Source of the DNA: Nitrospiraceae bacterium
Lineage (GTDB): Bacteria; Nitrospirota; Nitrospiria; Nitrospirales; Nitrospiraceae
Length of the DNA stretch: 64,000 nt
Reading direction: 5' to 3'
NCBI GenBank assembly: GCA_050246315.1
Contig: JBFWWG010000010.1
Location: 1-64,000 of the forward strand
The stretch's first letter is position 1. Each line of letters starts with the position of its first letter. The translations under genes and the position numbers were made by a program. Of this stretch, positions 1,503 through 53,340 are shown in pieces. The notes under the pieces were generated by a model. The model was not told the origin of the DNA and did no database searches. It saw nothing but the letters and a program-made list of their open reading frames with translations.

Positions 1503-2416
1503 GATGCTTTGAGCATTCGAGCACTTTTCAAACAGAATCTGACACAGGCCGCGAGCGGGACACCGAGGGTGGTCTTCCCGATCGTATTCAGCAACAGTCC
1601 CAGTCCATGCGAGACCGTATTCCACACCTTGCAATCCGGCTCCGAACACAGCCACACATATCGTAGATAATACCGAGGATTGGCCGTCGACTTTCTCGAG
1701 AAGAGGAGCTGTAGACACTCCTTTGTCGAGAGGGTTGCCCGATCGGGAAGATGCCATCCGGTAATCCGGCAATTGGCATAGGCCTTCGCTCTATGGGAAA
1801 CCGCGAGAGTGAAGCCGGCGCGTTTCGCTCTGATCGAGAACTCATAATCGGCCCCATAGTGGGGCAGCCGGCGGTGATCAAAGGTGCCGATCCGTTCGAA
1901 CACCTCGATGGGCACCAACGTTCCTCGGCCTGGAAGCACATCGACCTGATCATCGTATTCAGTCTGCTCGATCACGACGGCATCAGCGTTCTCCGTGACT
2001 CGAAGGCGTCGATCCATCCGTAACCCGGCTACGATCCGTTCAGGATGCTCATGGTCCACCACCGTCGAACCGACGATGGCCCGTCCCAGTTTCTCGCTGC
2101 ACCGCACCAATTCAGCCACATAACCCTCGTCCACCGTCACATCATTATTCAGGAGAAGGATGAAATCGCGCTCCCTCGCGCCATTGCGGATATGTGCCAC
2201 GCCAAGCACATTCGCCCCGGTCCACCACAAGTTGCCGTTCCCTCGTAGCACACTGACCGTTGGAAAACGGCCGCTCACCGTCTCGACTGTCTCGTCCACC
2301 GAGCCATCGTCGATCAACACCACCTGTTGTTCGACCCCCTGTTGTCGCTCGAGACATTGAAGGAGGGCCATGACCTCCAGTCTATTGTTGTGGGCGGGAA
2401 TCAGGATATGAACCAT
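1499..2416 (-). CDS. GT2-family glycosyltransferase (rhamnosyltransferase-like)
   Basis: Motifs ILIPAHN, IDDGSVD, GNLWWTGA, LLNND, HYGADYEFS. Confidence 0.88.
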   Translation of the reverse strand: MVHILIPAHNNRLEVMALLQCLERQQGVEQQVVLIDDGSVDETVETVSGRFPTVSVLRGNGNLWWTGANVLGVAHIRNGARERDFILLLNNDVTVDEGYVAELVRCSEKLGRAIVGSTVVDHEHPERIVAGLRMDRRLRVTENADAVVIEQTEYDDQVDVLPGRGTLVPIEVFERIGTFDHRRLPHYGADYEFSIRAKRAGFTLAVSHRAKAYANCRITGWHLPDRATLSTKECLQLLFSRKSTANPRYYLRYVWLCSEPDCKVWNTVSHGLGLLLNTIGKTTLGVPLAACVRFCLKSARMLKAS

Positions 2417-2481
2417 CGAACCGTCTCAAAAAGGTACGAGCGGCTCTTCACCGACGACGACCTTCGGAAGGTCCCTTCGCG

Positions 2482-3489
2482 CTATACTTTCGCCCGCTTC
2501 ACCGGCAGGCAGAGACCCAGCCCGGCCAGCAATCGGCCGACCTCGAGGGCAATCGGTCCGAGTTGTTCGATTGTCCACGCTCGGTGATCGGAACATTGCC
2601 TCCACTGGGTGATGGCCTTACGACTTAACGCTCGGATGGCAGCCAGCCCTGCTCGCAGTTGGTGTAGGCGTTCTCGCCATGTACCGGCAGCATTCAGCCG
2701 AGAGGCCACCTGCCCTGAGACAAACCACCGAGATAGATGATAGCTCGTACGTAGCTTATGCTTGCCGACCCTGTGGTATACAATGAGGTGGGGCGAATAC
2801 ATCACCATGGCTTCCTCGCCGAACAGGCTCCAGACCTTCTGGAAGAAGAGCGTTTCCTCGCCCACAGACATATAGTCGCCCCGCATCCCCACCCGTGTAT
2901 CGAACCCATCCAGTTGTTGAAGTACCGCCTTGGAAACGATCATATTGGAACCGGAGAATGATTCACCGGAGCATAAACGACGCGGCACGCCGCCCCAAGA
3001 CCTTACTTCGTATTCGTCTTTGTACCAAGCAGGTTTCGGAAAGGGATAAAAGGGGAGGATCTGCCCGCCCACTGCAACAGGGGTTGGACGACTCCGTTCA
3101 AACACTTCGAGCGCCTGTTCGAGCCAATGAGGGTCGGCCTTGGCATCATCATCCATGAAGGCCACATAGGTCCCCTTCGCGCAGCGCCAGCCCTTGTTCC
3201 TTGCGTGTCCCAATCCGAGTTCCGCCTCATAGAGCAGCCGCAAAGCGCATAACGAGTGTCGTGCCTGATACTCCGCAACCACGCTCCCGGTCTCGTCCGT
3301 CGAACGGTTATCCACCACCGCAATTTCATACTGTCGCCGGTCAAGCGTCTGACAGAGGAGACTGTCCAAGGCTTGCGGCAATAGGGCCGCTCGATTGTGA
3401 GTGCAGATGACGACAGACATTCTCAGACCGCCCTGGCTGTCACCACCTCCTGAGAACTGCTGAGAGTCGACTTCAGGAGTGGGAAGCAT
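2482..3489 (-). CDS. GT2-family glycosyltransferase
   Basis: Motifs SVVICTHNR, VVDNRSTD, GLGHARNKG, AFMDDD; start uncertain. Confidence 0.88.
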   Translation of the reverse strand: MLPTPEVDSQQFSGGGDSQGGLRMSVVICTHNRAALLPQALDSLLCQTLDRRQYEIAVVDNRSTDETGSVVAEYQARHSLCALRLLYEAELGLGHARNKGWRCAKGTYVAFMDDDAKADPHWLEQALEVFERSRPTPVAVGGQILPFYPFPKPAWYKDEYEVRSWGGVPRRLCSGESFSGSNMIVSKAVLQQLDGFDTRVGMRGDYMSVGEETLFFQKVWSLFGEEAMVMYSPHLIVYHRVGKHKLRTSYHLSRWFVSGQVASRLNAAGTWRERLHQLRAGLAAIRALSRKAITQWRQCSDHRAWTIEQLGPIALEVGRLLAGLGLCLPVKRAKV

Positions 3490-3497
3490 GGATGCCT

Positions 3498-4505
3498 TCA
3501 ATTGGCCATCATGGCCAGTCGTCGCCGTACGCGTCCGACCAGATTCTGCTTCCATCCCAAATCTACCGCAACGCTCAATGAAGAACTCCAAAACCGTCGT
3601 CCTAGTGTCGGCTCAACCGACTGGCAAATCGCCTTCCAGCGTTCTCCGACGACTCGTGCAAAGGCAGGCTCCGGGTAGATCCGCTTCTCTCTGTTCGCCC
3701 GACACAGCAGTTGAAGCCACGACTCCGCTTCCATCACGAAACCATCGGTTGCGGACCACGACCATGTACTGATCGCCTCGTGCATTCGGCCCTGTGTGAA
3801 GGTTGGGGAGAGCCCCAGGCGCTCCAACTGTCCCTCTCTGATCTTTCTAGCCCAGACCCGCTGTGTCTCTGCCCGATGCTGCCCTGCCTGTGCAGCGTGT
3901 AATCGTCGCATCAACAGAACCTCCGGGATGTTCGCCAGAGGCACACAAGGTGCCGCCCGTGTCCAGAGATCATAATCCTGCGCACAAGGATAGGAAGAAT
4001 CATAGAATAATCTCGCTTTTTGCATCGTCACCCGATTCAGCATGACCGAGGGATGTGCCAAGGCACAATCGAAGAGGAGCCGAGCGTGTATCGTGTCGGA
4101 ATCCGTGGGATACTCCCATACCTGCTGGATGCCCTCGCCGCGCACCTCGATCCACGAGCCGCAAACGCCCACGTGAGGATGCGCATCCATAAAGGCGACC
4201 TGGCGGGCCAACCTTGTAGGCAAACTGATGTCATCCGCATCCATGCGGGCGATATACCGGCCAGCGGCGAGGGAGAACCCAACGTTCAACGAAGCCGCTA
4301 ACCCGAGGTTCCTGTTGTGCCGAACGACACGAATCCGAGGATCGTCGAAGGAAGTGCTGATCCTCGCACTGGCGTCCGTTGATCCGTCGTCGAGGATGAT
4401 GAATTCCAACTCCGCGCACGACTGGCCAAGAATGCTCTCGATCGCCTCCCCCAGGAAGCGTTCTCCGTTGTAGACTGACATGACGACGGTGATGACGGGG
4501 TTCAT
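3498..4505 (-). CDS. GT2-family glycosyltransferase
   Basis: Motifs VVMSVYNGE, ILDDGSTD, ARMDADD, QDYDLW; ATGA overlap with the upstream gene. Confidence 0.9.
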   Translation of the reverse strand: MNPVITVVMSVYNGERFLGEAIESILGQSCAELEFIILDDGSTDASARISTSFDDPRIRVVRHNRNLGLAASLNVGFSLAAGRYIARMDADDISLPTRLARQVAFMDAHPHVGVCGSWIEVRGEGIQQVWEYPTDSDTIHARLLFDCALAHPSVMLNRVTMQKARLFYDSSYPCAQDYDLWTRAAPCVPLANIPEVLLMRRLHAAQAGQHRAETQRVWARKIREGQLERLGLSPTFTQGRMHEAISTWSWSATDGFVMEAESWLQLLCRANREKRIYPEPAFARVVGERWKAICQSVEPTLGRRFWSSSLSVAVDLGWKQNLVGRVRRRLAMMAN

Positions 4506-32690: not shown

Positions 32691-32829
32691 CGAACCGAGA
32701 GGCGGGGAGACCGCACACGTGGCTGTTCGCCGCTTCCATTTTGCATAGACTCCATGCTTGTATAGGCTCCATGCGCTTCCTGCCGTTGGTCTGCCTAACG
32801 CCCATCACTGCCAAATTGGCAGGGTTGCC

Positions 32830-34008
32830 GTGAGCGCGCTCGATCCCCTCTTCGAGCCAGACTTGTTCCGACTTGGCGCAAAGCACTTACTCAGGCAGTG
32901 CCACGTCATCGAGTCCGCCTGTGCGCCCGAAGTCGTATATCAAGGACGCCCCCTCATCCTCATGGCGTCCAATGACTACCTCGGCCTGGCCAACCATCCT
33001 GCTGTCAAGGAGGCAGCGGCTCAGGCTATTCGGCACTATGGGGTTGGTGCCGGAGCCGCACGCCTGATATCGGGAACACAATCGCCGCACTATGACTTGG
33101 AATCCGCCTTGGCAAAATGGAAGGACGCTGAGGCTGCACTTTGTTTCAGTTCCGGCTATTTAGCGAACCTCGGCCTTATTTCAAGTCTGGCCGGTCCCCA
33201 AGACCTCATCCTGGCCGACCGCCTCTGTCACGCAAGCCTGATCGACGGCTGCCGCCTTGCCCGCTCACGGCTGCGCGTGTTCCACCACGCCGATATCGGC
33301 CATCTGGAACAGCTGCTCAAGAAGCGCCCCACCGTTCGCCGGACGCTCATCGTCACTGATGGCCTGTTCAGCATGGATGGAGATCTAGCGCCCCTCTCGG
33401 ATCTAGCCCGACTCGCCAATCAGTATGACTGTCTTCTAATCGTGGACGATGCGCACGGCACCGGCGTGATGGGCGCGCATGGGCGAGGGTCATTGGAAGC
33501 CTGCGGTGTCGAGGAAACCGTTCCCTTTCACATGGGAACCCTTGGGAAGGCACTCGGAACAAGCGGCGCCTACATCGTCGGCTCCGAAACCTTCGTCCGA
33601 TTTCTTCTGAATCGCGCTCGGACCTTCCTGTTCACCACGGCCCCTCCCGCCGCCATGGCGGCGGCCACGACCGCCGCACTCAAGGTGCTCCAACAAGAGC
33701 CAACCCGTCGCGACCGATTATGGGCGAATCGCGACAGGCTGTTCGAAGGTCTCACCAGATTGGGCCTCTCTCTGACGCCCACCGCCAGTCCAATACTTCC
33801 GGTTATCGTCGGGGATGAAGCACGCGCGCTGGAGATGGCCCAGGCCCTGCTGGACCGGGGGATTTATGCGCCGGCTGTCCGCCCCCCGACCGTTCCTCAG
33901 GGTAGCAGCCGAATCAGACTGACGGTGACAGCCGACCACACCCGGGAGCATCTGGACCGTGTGCTGCACGCGTTTCAAAACATTCTCCTATCGCATCCGC
34001 TGCCGTAG
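32830..34008 (+). CDS. bioF: 8-amino-7-oxononanoate synthase
   Basis: SNDYLGLA, SGYLAN, HASLIDG, DGLFSMDGD, VDDAHG, GTLGKALG. Confidence 0.93.
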   Translation: MSALDPLFEPDLFRLGAKHLLRQCHVIESACAPEVVYQGRPLILMASNDYLGLANHPAVKEAAAQAIRHYGVGAGAARLISGTQSPHYDLESALAKWKDAEAALCFSSGYLANLGLISSLAGPQDLILADRLCHASLIDGCRLARSRLRVFHHADIGHLEQLLKKRPTVRRTLIVTDGLFSMDGDLAPLSDLARLANQYDCLLIVDDAHGTGVMGAHGRGSLEACGVEETVPFHMGTLGKALGTSGAYIVGSETFVRFLLNRARTFLFTTAPPAAMAAATTAALKVLQQEPTRRDRLWANRDRLFEGLTRLGLSLTPTASPILPVIVGDEARALEMAQALLDRGIYAPAVRPPTVPQGSSRIRLTVTADHTREHLDRVLHAFQNILLSHPLP

Positions 34009-34214
34009 CCCACAGTTTTCATGAACGCTTCCGTTGCAGTCGCGGTCAGTAAGGCAAGACTCGCTTGAGGTGTCTACTCTCGCGCAACATCAATTAACTG
34101 GCGCTCGACCTCGCAAGCGCTTGGGACGGCGAGTTCGGCCGCGGTAGTCACACGGCCAGACTCGCCACCCGGTCGGTCAACAGACCGGTTCAAGTCTGCC
34201 TTGTATCATCATCT

Positions 34215-34380
34215 TGGAGCATATAGATGCTTGCCGATTCTTCGATAGGACGTGATAGATCGATCTGCCTCGGGTCGTCCAAGACCGGAAGGGAGCCCGA
34301 TCGTCACGTCCTCATCCACCCAAGCCCGAACAGTTGTCTGAGCCCCGAGCCCGTATCTATCGCAAGGTTGGGCGTCCCAT
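34215..34380 (+). ncRNA. Predicted IS110 bridge RNA
   Basis: 5' hairpin AGCAT/ATGCT; large stem AGGACGTGA/TCACGTCCT enclosing an internal loop whose segments match the insertion site; second stem-loop CCCAA..CC/GGTTGGG containing ACAGTTG, similar to the right-end donor. Confidence 0.7.
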
Positions 34381-34394
34381 CTCAAGGAGGACCG

Positions 34395-35345
34395 ATGCCA
34401 GACATGCCGATCTTTGTCGAATATTGATGTTTCCAAGACGCAGTTGGACCTGGCCGTGCGCCCCTCGGACGCGCGGGACACGCTAGTCCATGAGCGGTGG
34501 GGATTGACACGGTGGTCACCCATTTCAGTCAGGTCCCGCCGATCTTGATGGTACTGGCAGCCACGGGTGGGCTGGAGCGACCCCTGGTACGGGCGCTGGT
34601 CGCAGCCAGGTTGCCGCTGATTGTCGCGAATCCGCGACAGGTCCGAGACTGTGCCAAAGCGACCGGGCAATTGGCCAAGATCCATCGCCTGGATGCCGGG
34701 GTGCTGGCACGCTTTGCCGAGGCCGGCCAGCCCGTGCGCCGGCCGTATCCCGAGGCCGCCACGGAGGCGTTGGCGGCGCTGCTGGCGCGCCGCCGCCAGG
34801 TGATCGAGATGCTCACCACCGAAAAGAACCGGCTGAGTCCTGCCCCCAAGCCGATGCGCCGCTGGATCCACGCGCCTGTGCCCTGGCTCACGACCAAGCT
34901 GGCGCTGCTCGATGAGGAGCTTGATCATGCCATCCAGCAGCGCCCAGTTTGGCGAGAGCAGGAGGATTTGCTGTGGAGTGCCCCCGGGATTGGTCCCGTG
35001 GTGAGCCGGACCTTGCTGACTCACCTGCCTGGCCTGGCGACCCTGACCGGCAAGCCGATGGCCGCCCTGGTGGCCGTGGCTACCTTGACTTGCGATAGCG
35101 GCACCTTGCGAGGTCCGCGCCGGGTGTGGGGTGGCCGGGCTCCCGTCCGGGCAGCCCTGTATAGGGCCACCTTGGTGGCGACGAAGTGTACTTCCGGTGA
35201 TTCGCAATTTCTATCGCAGGCTGCGGGCCACCGACAAGGCGCCCAAAGTGGCCCTCGTGGCGTGCATGCGAAAGTTCCTGAGATTCTCAACGCGATGATG
35301 AAGCATTGTACGCCGTGGCGCTCCGTGGTGCCTCAGGGGACTTGA
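34395..35345 (+). pseudogene. IS110 DEDD recombinase/transposase pseudogene
   Basis: AGGAGG RBS; MPDMPIFV then a frameshift to IDVSKTQLDLA; LAATGGLE (E>A), NPRQVR, AKIHRLDA (TD>IH), PGIGP, DSG, GGRAPVRAALY; further frameshifts near 35190 and 35280. Confidence 0.88.
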
Positions 35346-35673
35346 CATTCAAGGCAGTGGCTCCCTCCTCGCGGCTCCGCGGCGGTACCCATTGCTCTTT
35401 CGATGCCATGGGTTCAGCGCGACGAACCGTCATGAATATTGTGGGCTAGTCATTTTCAGTAAATCCGCGCTTTCCGTCCTCCTGCCCACTACAGCCTCGC
35501 AGTCCGTGGGCTTTGCCGTTCGTAAACCTTTGCATCTTGGTGCGATTTTCTTGCGTTCCGACCTCACTATGGCATGATGCGACCAGCCGGAAACGACGCC
35601 TTTCTTTCGACATGCGAGGCCGGACCGGCATCATCTATACCTAATCCGCATTTTTCCAGGGGGGCGACGCGCA

Positions 35674-52330: not shown

Positions 52331-53340
52331 TCAATTGGCGACTTCGTCGATGATTGTGGATCGGATGAGTGCTCTCCACTGCTCGGTGGCGGACTCCTTG
52401 GTCAAGGAGCCCGTGGTGGCGGTCACCCTCGTGACCTGTTCGGTTTCTCAATCGTTGCGGACGGGCACGCCGAGGACCAACGACCTGATATTGGCCCGGT
52501 TGATCACGCGCGTGGCATCGATGCTGTCCATGCAAGGCATACTCACATCCATGACAACCACATCCGGCGACAGGCTGTGCGCCAGTTCGATCGCTTCGAT
52601 GCCGTTGCCGGCTTCGCTGAAGATGCAGACATCCTCGTACCCTTCTAACCCGCATTATTCATGACCGCTGCTACTGCAACCGCCGATACGCCGCTGCGAC
52701 AGGCTTGGCTGCCGGTCTCCCGCACCCAAGCGGGCAGGCTCGCCGCTCGGTCGGTCGACATACGGTTTCAAGTATGCCTTCCTTCCTCGCGGCCCCGCGT
52801 GCCCGTCTCGCGTAGCGTCTTGGCGGTTTCGTCACGAACCGTCATGAATAATGCGGGCTAACCTGCTCCGCAGCCCATGCCACACCATCGCATGGTCATC
52901 GACCAGCGGGACGCGAATCACCTTGCTCTTGTAGGAACCGCGAGGTACGGGGCCCTGGTGAAGCGTCTCATGAGACGCCGAAGGGTGAGCCGATTTCGCG
53001 ACCGGCATCCTCTGTTCTTGGGACACCACAGTGGCCGCGTGTTCGGAGTGACACACGTCACGCCCCTTCCCTACCCAGTATTGGAATCGATCACCGACGT
53101 GCCACCCATGCCCGTCATCCACTCGCCAATACTGCAGGGTCCGAACCGTAACGGCATCGTCCCGTAGATAGCCCGCTCAGTGAACTCTTCCACCCGTCCC
53201 TGGTCGATCTCGGCGATATACAACCGTTGTTGCGATCGCGTCAACTCCTCGGTCCTCTCCGTGACCCGAATTTCCAACCCTTCCGTCAATTGCTGCAATG
53301 ATGCTTCGGCCCGTTTCCGCTCGGTGATGCACGCATCATG
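52331..53340 (-). pseudogene. Collapsed sensor kinase/NarL-type receiver pseudogene, split by a MITE
   Basis: PAC-coiled-coil remnant ITERKRAEASLQQL...RVTERTEEL; receiver IRVPLVDDHAMV...GLRSRL|EGYEDV...EAGNGIEAIELA...PDVVVMDVSMP; internal TGA at 52448-52450. Confidence 0.75.
52649..52857 (+). mobile_element. MITE-like non-autonomous element, copy 2 (209 bp)
   Basis: Perfect 17-bp TIRs CCCGCATTATTCATGAC / GTCATGAATAATGCGGG; CTAA duplicated at 52645-52648 and 52858-52861; removing it restores the receiver-domain frame. Confidence 0.92.

Follow-up and report, generated by a model that had tools for sequence, protein, structure and literature searches.

Several insertion sequences of the IS110 family home into repeats or into other mobile elements. 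IS4321 and IS5075 target the ends of Tn21, and ISPpu10 of Pseudomonas putida reportedly inserts into clusters of repetitive extragenic palindromes (REP) and bacterial interspersed mosaic elements (BIME). ISPpu9, an IS110-group element of the same species, is also found in REP/BIME clusters; it uses an AG core, and MITEPpu9 derives from ISPpu9 itself (accessible text of PMC12288879). ISPye46 may prefer IS256 and IS5 elements (PMC11578231). IS621 of Escherichia coli, again a member of the IS110 group, inserts into REP under the guidance of a bridge RNA of 177 nt in which the left target guide (LTG) has the sequence of the top strand of the left target and the right target guide (RTG) is complementary to the right target, and IS110 elements carry a sigma-70 promoter across the junction of right end (RE) and left end (LE) (accessible text of PMC11208160). 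Here we describe an IS110-group element lying inside a miniature inverted-repeat transposable element, or MITE, within the first 64,000 nucleotides of contig JBFWWG010000010.1 of a Nitrospiraceae bacterium; this whole stretch is referred to as the window.

The locus is very probably the product of a MITE insertion, a bridge-RNA-guided insertion of the IS110 element at the MITE hairpin, and decay of the IS110 element. A MITE of ~215-275 bp would first have entered the TAG stop codon of a bioF-like gene, the IS110-group element would next have used a CT core to recombine into the MITE at the 3' foot of its conserved central hairpin, and would finally have decayed. The features concerned, including the terminal inverted repeats (TIRs) of the MITE, are as follows.

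34006-34008, + strand: left copy (TAG) of the MITE target-site duplication, from the sequence; also the stop codon of the bioF-like open reading frame (ORF) 32758-34008
34009-34199, + strand: left part of the interrupted MITE, with left TIR CCCACAGTTTTCATGA and hairpin CAGAC...GTCTG, from nhmmer and the family alignment
34194-34199, + strand: left target GTCTGC, made up of the 3' arm of the hairpin CAGAC...GTCTG plus C
34200-34201 and again 35361-35362, + strand: CT core dinucleotide, present at both junctions
34202-35362, + strand: IS110-group element with one CT core, 1161 bp
34395-35345, + strand: IS110-family recombinase pseudogene, from Pfam PF01548 and PF02371, the ORF list and a tblastn frame map
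35342-35362, + strand: right end, consisting of TTGACA (35342-35347, overlapping the stop codon), 13 nt and the CT core
35363-35445, + strand: right part of the interrupted MITE, with the right target CCCTCC..., then a 30-bp palindromic insert module and right TIR TCATGAATATTGTGGG, from nhmmer
35447-35449, + strand: right copy (TAG) of the MITE target-site duplication, from the sequence and the empty orthologous spacers

The filled MITE spans 34009 (CCCACAGTTTTCATGA) to 35445 (...TCATGAATATTGTGGG) and measures ~275 bp without the IS110 element. An empty copy of the same family is found further along the window.

52649-52857, + strand: uninterrupted MITE with perfect 17-bp TIRs (CCCGCATTATTCATGAC), matched by nhmmer over hidden Markov model (HMM) positions 8-229 (E 8.7e-69)
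52645-52648 and 52858-52861: CTAA duplication of the uninterrupted MITE, from the sequence
52772-52785: unoccupied IS110 site GTATGC-CT-TCCTTCC inside the uninterrupted MITE, from the sequence

Searched by blastn against the whole source genome (G000; 4.39 Mb in 30 contigs, of which those labelled C1-C10 are cited below), the left flank of the IS110 element gave 82% identity over 50 nt (E 8e-7) and the right MITE end 92.6% over 27 nt (E 4e-4). The empty copy had many blastn matches in its own genome, 27 of them near full length. A family HMM was trained on 27 full-length G000 copies, and a whole-genome nhmmer search (E<1e-3) matched 34142-34209 (HMM positions 86-153, E 3.3e-7) and 35364-35455 (HMM positions 148-233, E 1.5e-8). 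This search revealed 222 matches in G000, 73 of them full-length, covering 0.72% of the genome.

The upstream ORF (32758-34008) encodes a bioF-like protein of 416 amino acids in the aminotransferase class (Pfam Aminotran_1_2), and the downstream neighbour of the filled MITE is a pilT-like ATPase gene. The orthologous bioF-pilT spacer was compared in two genomes of the same genus, G001 and G003, and contains neither the MITE nor the IS110 element; deletion of the element together with one TAG restores colinearity with both spacers. Since the spacer is empty in these relatives, we therefore regard the MITE as a real insertion at the TAG stop of the bioF-like gene, and on this alignment the empty spacers are direct evidence of MITE transposition with a 3-bp duplication. 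The MITE went in precisely at this stop codon, and the TAG duplication keeps a stop there; the relatives have TAA and no MITE.

Homologues of the IS110 element were surveyed by protein search across 81 genomes and were present in 17. In G000 a search with PF01548 returned two loci, the window copy and a second one, copy 2 (C10:117980-119120, minus strand), which has 68% DNA identity to the window copy and a single frameshift in a run of G. The MITE interrupted by copy 2 belongs to another subfamily, and the break follows ...CACGTATGC-CT, at the same position as for the window copy, so that both full-length copies in G000 (2/2) split a MITE after ...GTMTGC-CT. The complete genome G001 carries ten copies with 1147-bp bodies and an intact ORF of 316 amino acids; the bodies are 100% identical, which argues for recent activity. 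Seven of these ten, all oriented alike, have MITE halves on both sides whose junction falls at the same HMM position; one (L020) sits in a second family of repeats, with a similar hairpin ending GTACGC-CT, and two (L026 and L032) in non-repeat DNA. In Nitrospira sp. RSF6 (L038, about 1819-4271) two tandem IS110 copies occupy a MITE, separated by a ~70-bp MITE-derived spacer that ends in a second target site. The sequence upstream of the first tandem copy in L038 reads N. A CT dinucleotide was present at both junctions of all 24 insertions examined.

Nesting could also arise by chance, if IS110 inserted anywhere and survived only in neutral DNA such as MITEs, which are intergenic and presumably neutral; nested mobile elements are, moreover, common. 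Against this, every MITE-borne copy has the same nucleotide position and orientation, MITEs make up only 0.72% of the genome, and the guides described below match their flanks in a lineage-specific manner. Chance nesting is extremely improbable, and we rejected it on account of where the copies lie and of what their guides match.

An alignment was made of the left ends from 13 lineages (the window copy, copy 2, G001, G018, G079, G002, G030, G032, G017, G016, G009, G061 and G033). Locus L012 comes from the unpublished genome G009 and is counted within the 13; dropping it leaves 12 and an unchanged picture. The consensus fold consists of two modules, in each of which an internal loop separates an outer from an inner stem, and in the window the modules and their guides, including the left and right donor guides (LDG and RDG), lie as follows.

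34200-34376, + strand: left end with the putative ~177-nt bridge RNA, from the alignment and consensus fold of 13 lineages
34248-34311, + strand: target-binding loop module, with LTG ATCTGCCTC at 34263-34271 and RTG GAAGGGAG at 34288-34295
34324-34373, + strand: donor-binding loop module, with LDG ACAGTTGTCT at 34330-34339 and the RDG region around 34360-34367

The four stems comprise 27 pairs, in which 96.6% of the alignment cells are paired; compensatory changes occur in 11 of the pairs, a result that neither 500 shuffles nor any slid register came near. The RNA is 155-181 nt long across the lineages and 177 nt in the window copy. An Rfam scan of 33900-35600 at a permissive E-value found no family near its gathering score, the best matches being to unrelated models; because no Rfam model matched, the bridge-RNA assignment rests on architecture compared with that of PMC11208160. 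A weak match to Rfam sX15, a small RNA of the Xanthomonadaceae, lies at 34236-34364 on the minus strand, where it runs antisense to the region of the target-binding loop; it scores 21.7 bits where the gathering score is 55, and is probably due to chance.

In the target loop the 5' strand corresponds to left flank plus core, and the 3' strand to the reverse complement of core plus right flank. Reading the strands of three lineages gives:

Window copy, 5' strand ATCTGCCTC, 34263-34271: reads ...GTCTGC-CT-C
Window copy, 3' strand GAAGGGAG, 34288-34295: reads CT-CCCTCC
Copy 2, 5' strand ATATGCCTC: reads GTATGC-CT-C
G001, 5' strand ATACGCCTC: reads GTACGC-CT-C/T

Guides were scored at six non-core positions on each side, which for 13 lineages x 12 gives 156 positions. 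Own flanks matched at 122 of these, compared with a permutation mean of 60.5 (sd 6.6, max 103), and none of 100,000 permutations reached 122. An independent set of public genomes behaved likewise: among 80 loci a regex parser recovered 46 (the other 34 were dropped for parsing failure, regardless of result), and these held 30 distinct guide pairs that scored 9.40 of 12 on their own flanks versus 4.73 on those of others. Distant homologues, at 54-71% amino acid identity, have other sites and correspondingly different guides. By inspection only, the LDG of the donor loop (ACAGTTGC) equals the right end, both becoming ACAGTCGC (T to C) in L012 and L013, and the RDG on the 3' strand of that loop, CAAG, could base-pair with CTTG in the left end. 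It is strongly supported by these comparisons that the left end encodes a putative bridge RNA whose guides read the element's own flanks.

The first-pass annotation, made from the letters of the window, had proposed that the IS110 element at 34009-35445 is nested in a MITE, with an empty copy at 52649-52857, and that a bridge RNA aims it there. Both pairs of coordinates proved exact to the base, and the flanks resemble the empty copy, a point on which the proposal hung, significantly by blastn and by HMM. Its expectation that the MITE would have many copies is borne out by the 222 HMM matches, 73 of them full-length, and homologues do recur at the predicted TGC-CT position (2/2 in G000, 7/10 in G001 and the RSF6 copies); together with guides that match the flanks, these same-position homologues bear out the aiming as well. 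We infer that a complex of recombinase and RNA brings together the MITE site and the circular insertion sequence, whose donor junction RE-CT-LE the second loop would read, and that strands would be exchanged at CT. Present in dozens to hundreds of copies, the MITE would offer the IS110 element many harmless intergenic landing pads.

The same annotation had further suggested that the IS110 element could be carried by the MITE, and this part found no support. The filled MITE does retain both TIRs and the TAG duplication, which a cognate transposase could in principle recognise, moving a MITE::IS110 composite in trans with the IS110 element as cargo. Against this stand the ten IS bodies of G001, which are 100% identical while their seven MITE hosts are only about 70% alike (left halves, 140 bp: mean 69%, max 90% identity; right halves, 85 bp: mean 72%, max 89%). 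Identical bodies in diverged MITEs therefore speak for independent insertions into old MITEs and not for composite movement, and the two G000 copies lie in different MITE subfamilies. No autonomous element ending in the MITE TIRs turned up: where two TIRs lie 1-4 kb apart, the DNA between them holds ordinary genes (e.g. GyrB-like and membrane proteins, judged by translation), and none of the 8 loci inspected among 28 DDE_Tnp_1/DDE_Tnp_4 transposase loci of G000-G002 has these TIRs at its ends, other transposase families and genomes being unsearched. Composite movement is very unlikely.

Which MITE subfamily is read appears to differ between lineages. Among the 91 MITE copies in G000 that cover the site, the hairpin arms are CATAC/GTATG in 37, CGTAC/GTACG in 9 and CAGAC/GTCTG in 6; the six bases to the left of the core are GTATGC in 35, GTACGC in 16 and GTCTGC in 9; and 50 copies have CT as their core, 24 TT. 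The arms (52761-52777 and 34183-34199) vary by compensation, which suggests selection on DNA or RNA structure inside the MITE. The LTGs TCTGC (window copy), TATGC (copy 2) and TACGC (G001) correspond to the three hairpin variants GTCTGC, GTATGC and GTACGC; because the LTGs of sister lineages match these variants, we read the left guides as retuned among MITE subfamilies. Across the genome, the guides of the window copy are matched best by five occurrences of GTCTGCCTCCCTTC, agreeing at 13/14 positions, and 4/5 of them are in MITEs. G001 holds 42 empty TACGCCTYRG sites; of the 30 that come first in genome order, 19 fall within MITEs. On these counts MITEs are the supplier of most available targets, and this would account for 7-8 of the 10 G001 insertions without any further determinant.

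Several results weigh against the MITE as the only or the proper target. Two of the ten G001 copies, L026 and L032, follow TACGC-CT and TAAGC-CT in non-repeat DNA with partial target matches; one of these sites has a perfect right-guide match and one mismatch in the left target, and both look like natural off-target or half-match insertions. The homologues examined at 52-71% amino acid identity lie outside the window-type MITE, apart from that of G033, which occupies another site in a related MITE, and the MITE HMM, run on the 80 public loci of more distant homologues, matched only L038. In the lineage of copy 2 and G001, the distal RTG agrees with just 2-3 of the 6 non-core right-target positions at 6/7 MITE insertions; it reaches 5/6 at the seventh (L033), yet 6/6 at the non-MITE site L032. 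The ideal 14-mer of the copy-2/G001 guides shows no MITE enrichment in G000, and none of 34 sites with up to 2 mismatches to the copy-2 14-mer is in a MITE. This lineage may accordingly recognise the MITE mainly via its left guide, and a second repeat family, with right target CGGCC, may fit it at least as well.

The absence of any concentration of the copy-2/G001 14-mer in MITEs led us to a further explanation, in which the target is a ~12-nt module at the foot of the hairpin, common to at least two repeat families with unrelated ends, and the MITE split by the window IS110 element (type-1) is one carrier of it. The second family (type-2) is ~125 bp long with TIR CAGGATGCTGAAAAAGTCCGCCAGC and TAG-like flanks (e.g. 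C7:455-600, C6:190940-191085 and C4:51906-52048), and its halves give 71 and 44 BLAST matches in G000. It has the same central hairpin module as the MITE (ACGTAC...GTACGC), followed by CGCC or CGGCC, so that the module appears to be common to two families whose ends are unrelated. Type-2 repeats host L020 of G001, L039, L012 of the unpublished genome G009 and, in G000, a third, 5'-truncated IS110 remnant (C3:336167-336447, junction at C3:336447); the copy-2/G001 RTG, the reverse complement of CTCGGCC, also fits type-2 right flanks better than those of the MITE. On the other side, the window guides match a MITE subfamily site at 13/14 positions with 4/5 such sites in MITEs, 9/12 full-length copies of G000 and G001 together sit in type-1 MITEs, and most type-2 copies in G000 read GTACGC-TT or GTACGG-CC and so have no CT core. 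A module target is possible though doubtful; it would refine and not replace guided insertion into the MITE, which for the copy-2/G001 lineage may be a secondary, half-matched carrier.

More tentatively still, and with the odds rather against it, the IS110 clade and the MITE may co-diversify: compensatory changes in the hairpin (CATAC/GTATG, CGTAC/GTACG and CAGAC/GTCTG) would be followed by retuning of the LTG, and the hairpin module would serve as a portable attachment-site cassette. If so, the family would hold a natural record of bridge-RNA reprogramming, and the selection on structure inside the MITE would be exploited by the IS110 element or would help the MITE to escape it.

The window element itself belongs to the IS110 family and, within it, to the IS110 group, an assignment that is drawn from its domains, its ends and its guides. 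The frame 34497-35345 (282 amino acids) matches DEDD_Tnp_IS110 (E 6.6e-11) and Transposase_20 (E 1.5e-7), both above the Pfam cut-offs, and the main frame has 56% identity with the intact G001 protein. At least four frame changes interrupt the recombinase, Ala stands in place of the catalytic Glu in the EATGG motif (LAATGG), and the right end (GCAGTGG) no longer fits the element's own donor guide. Judged from these lesions, the window copy is dead and is predicted to be unable to move by itself. The two ends, CTTGTATC... and ...ACAGTTGCT, do not form inverted repeats; the left end comprises ~195 nt and the right end ~15-20 nt. Two nt after the core the left end has the motif TATCTT in relatives and TATCAT, preceded by TG, in the window copy, and the spacing between TTGACA and the core is common to the relatives. 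A circle junction RE-CT-LE would form a predicted promoter TTGACA-N17-TATNNT (TATCAT in the window copy, TATCTT in relatives). In the IS1111 group the guide RNA lies downstream of the gene and there are subterminal repeats, in which that group differs from the window element.

The small repeat has the properties of a MITE, namely TIRs, a target-site duplication, small size, no ORF and many copies. The family consensus ends in TIR CCCRCATTATTCATGA with a 3-4-bp (C)TAR duplication, and in the 27 aligned copies the TIRs are conserved, the interiors variable, and TAR/CTAR direct repeats lie outside the TIRs. With up to 3 mismatches allowed, the 16-nt TIR has 154 forward and 148 reverse matches in G000. 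The MITE is also present in 3/3 other same-genus genomes searched, with at least 45 BLAST matches in each. REP sequences and their REPIN arrangements are imperfect palindromes of ~20-40 bp without TIRs or target-site duplications, mobilised by RAYT transposases; at ~215 bp, with TIRs and target-site duplications, the present family falls outside that class, RAYT genes not having been looked for. The flanks were also considered as an IS110-derived MITE of the MITEPpu9 kind, and this was rejected on the grounds of their own TIRs and target-site duplication and the lack of any likeness to the IS110 ends. An extra palindromic module of ~30 bp (GGTACCCATTGC...GCAATGGGTCC-like) is found in the right half of some MITEs (window 35382-35420 and, among others, C10:113947-114218 and C1:405056-405327) and makes the family modular in length, from about 200 to 275 bp. 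Lastly, L013 (G033:C43) holds a more distant IS110 lineage with different guides, nested in a related MITE whose TIR is CCCGGACTATTCATGAAT; the insertion lies elsewhere in the MITE interior, at ...CATGGCGCG-CT-TTATTCAGCGCGCC; its target motif is uninterrupted in the MITE variant of L036 in G001.

A search of the literature, which took in neither most subscription journals nor ISfinder, found no report of an IS110-family element that targets a MITE and no published account of Nitrospira MITEs. The belief of the first-pass annotation that this pairing had not been described therefore stands to that extent, though it is less novel than supposed, homing of these elements into repeats and mobile elements being well known. 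The mechanism is that of the known family and is unchanged by our results. What the locus adds is a natural bridge-RNA case in which a TIR-bounded MITE, and not a REP, serves as the landing pad. The left guides of close relatives differ exactly where the MITE subfamilies differ, which bears on how such elements retarget in nature. An abundant Nitrospira MITE family and a second repeat family that shares its hairpin should also aid the genome annotation of these nitrite oxidisers.

As with IS4321, IS5075 and perhaps ISPye46, an IS110-family element here homes into the sequence of another mobile element; those elements aim at autonomous transposons and insertion sequences, at their ends or in their bodies, whereas the site used here is a hairpin in the interior of a MITE, which is non-autonomous. 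With ISPpu9 and, reportedly, ISPpu10, as far as their accessible descriptions go, the window element has in common that all genomic copies are confined to a single class of palindromic repeat between genes, that the crossover dinucleotide is conserved and that a palindrome adjoins the site. ISPpu9 differs in its AG core and REP target, the MITE being an unrelated TIR-bounded target and no derivative of the IS110 element. The likeness to IS621, judged by its accessible description, extends to a recombinase with DEDD and Transposase_20 domains, the lack of TIRs, the CT core, a left-end RNA of ~177 nt with target and donor loops, the LTG/RTG rule and the RE-LE junction promoter, here predicted. 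It includes the target too, a multi-copy palindromic intergenic repeat in which insertion takes place beside a hairpin. By comparison, IS621 uses a 35-bp REP, whereas the target here is a MITE of ~215 bp with 17-bp TIRs and a 3-4-bp duplication, and, unlike in the account of IS621, sister lineages here appear tuned to three compensatory variants of the hairpin of one repeat.

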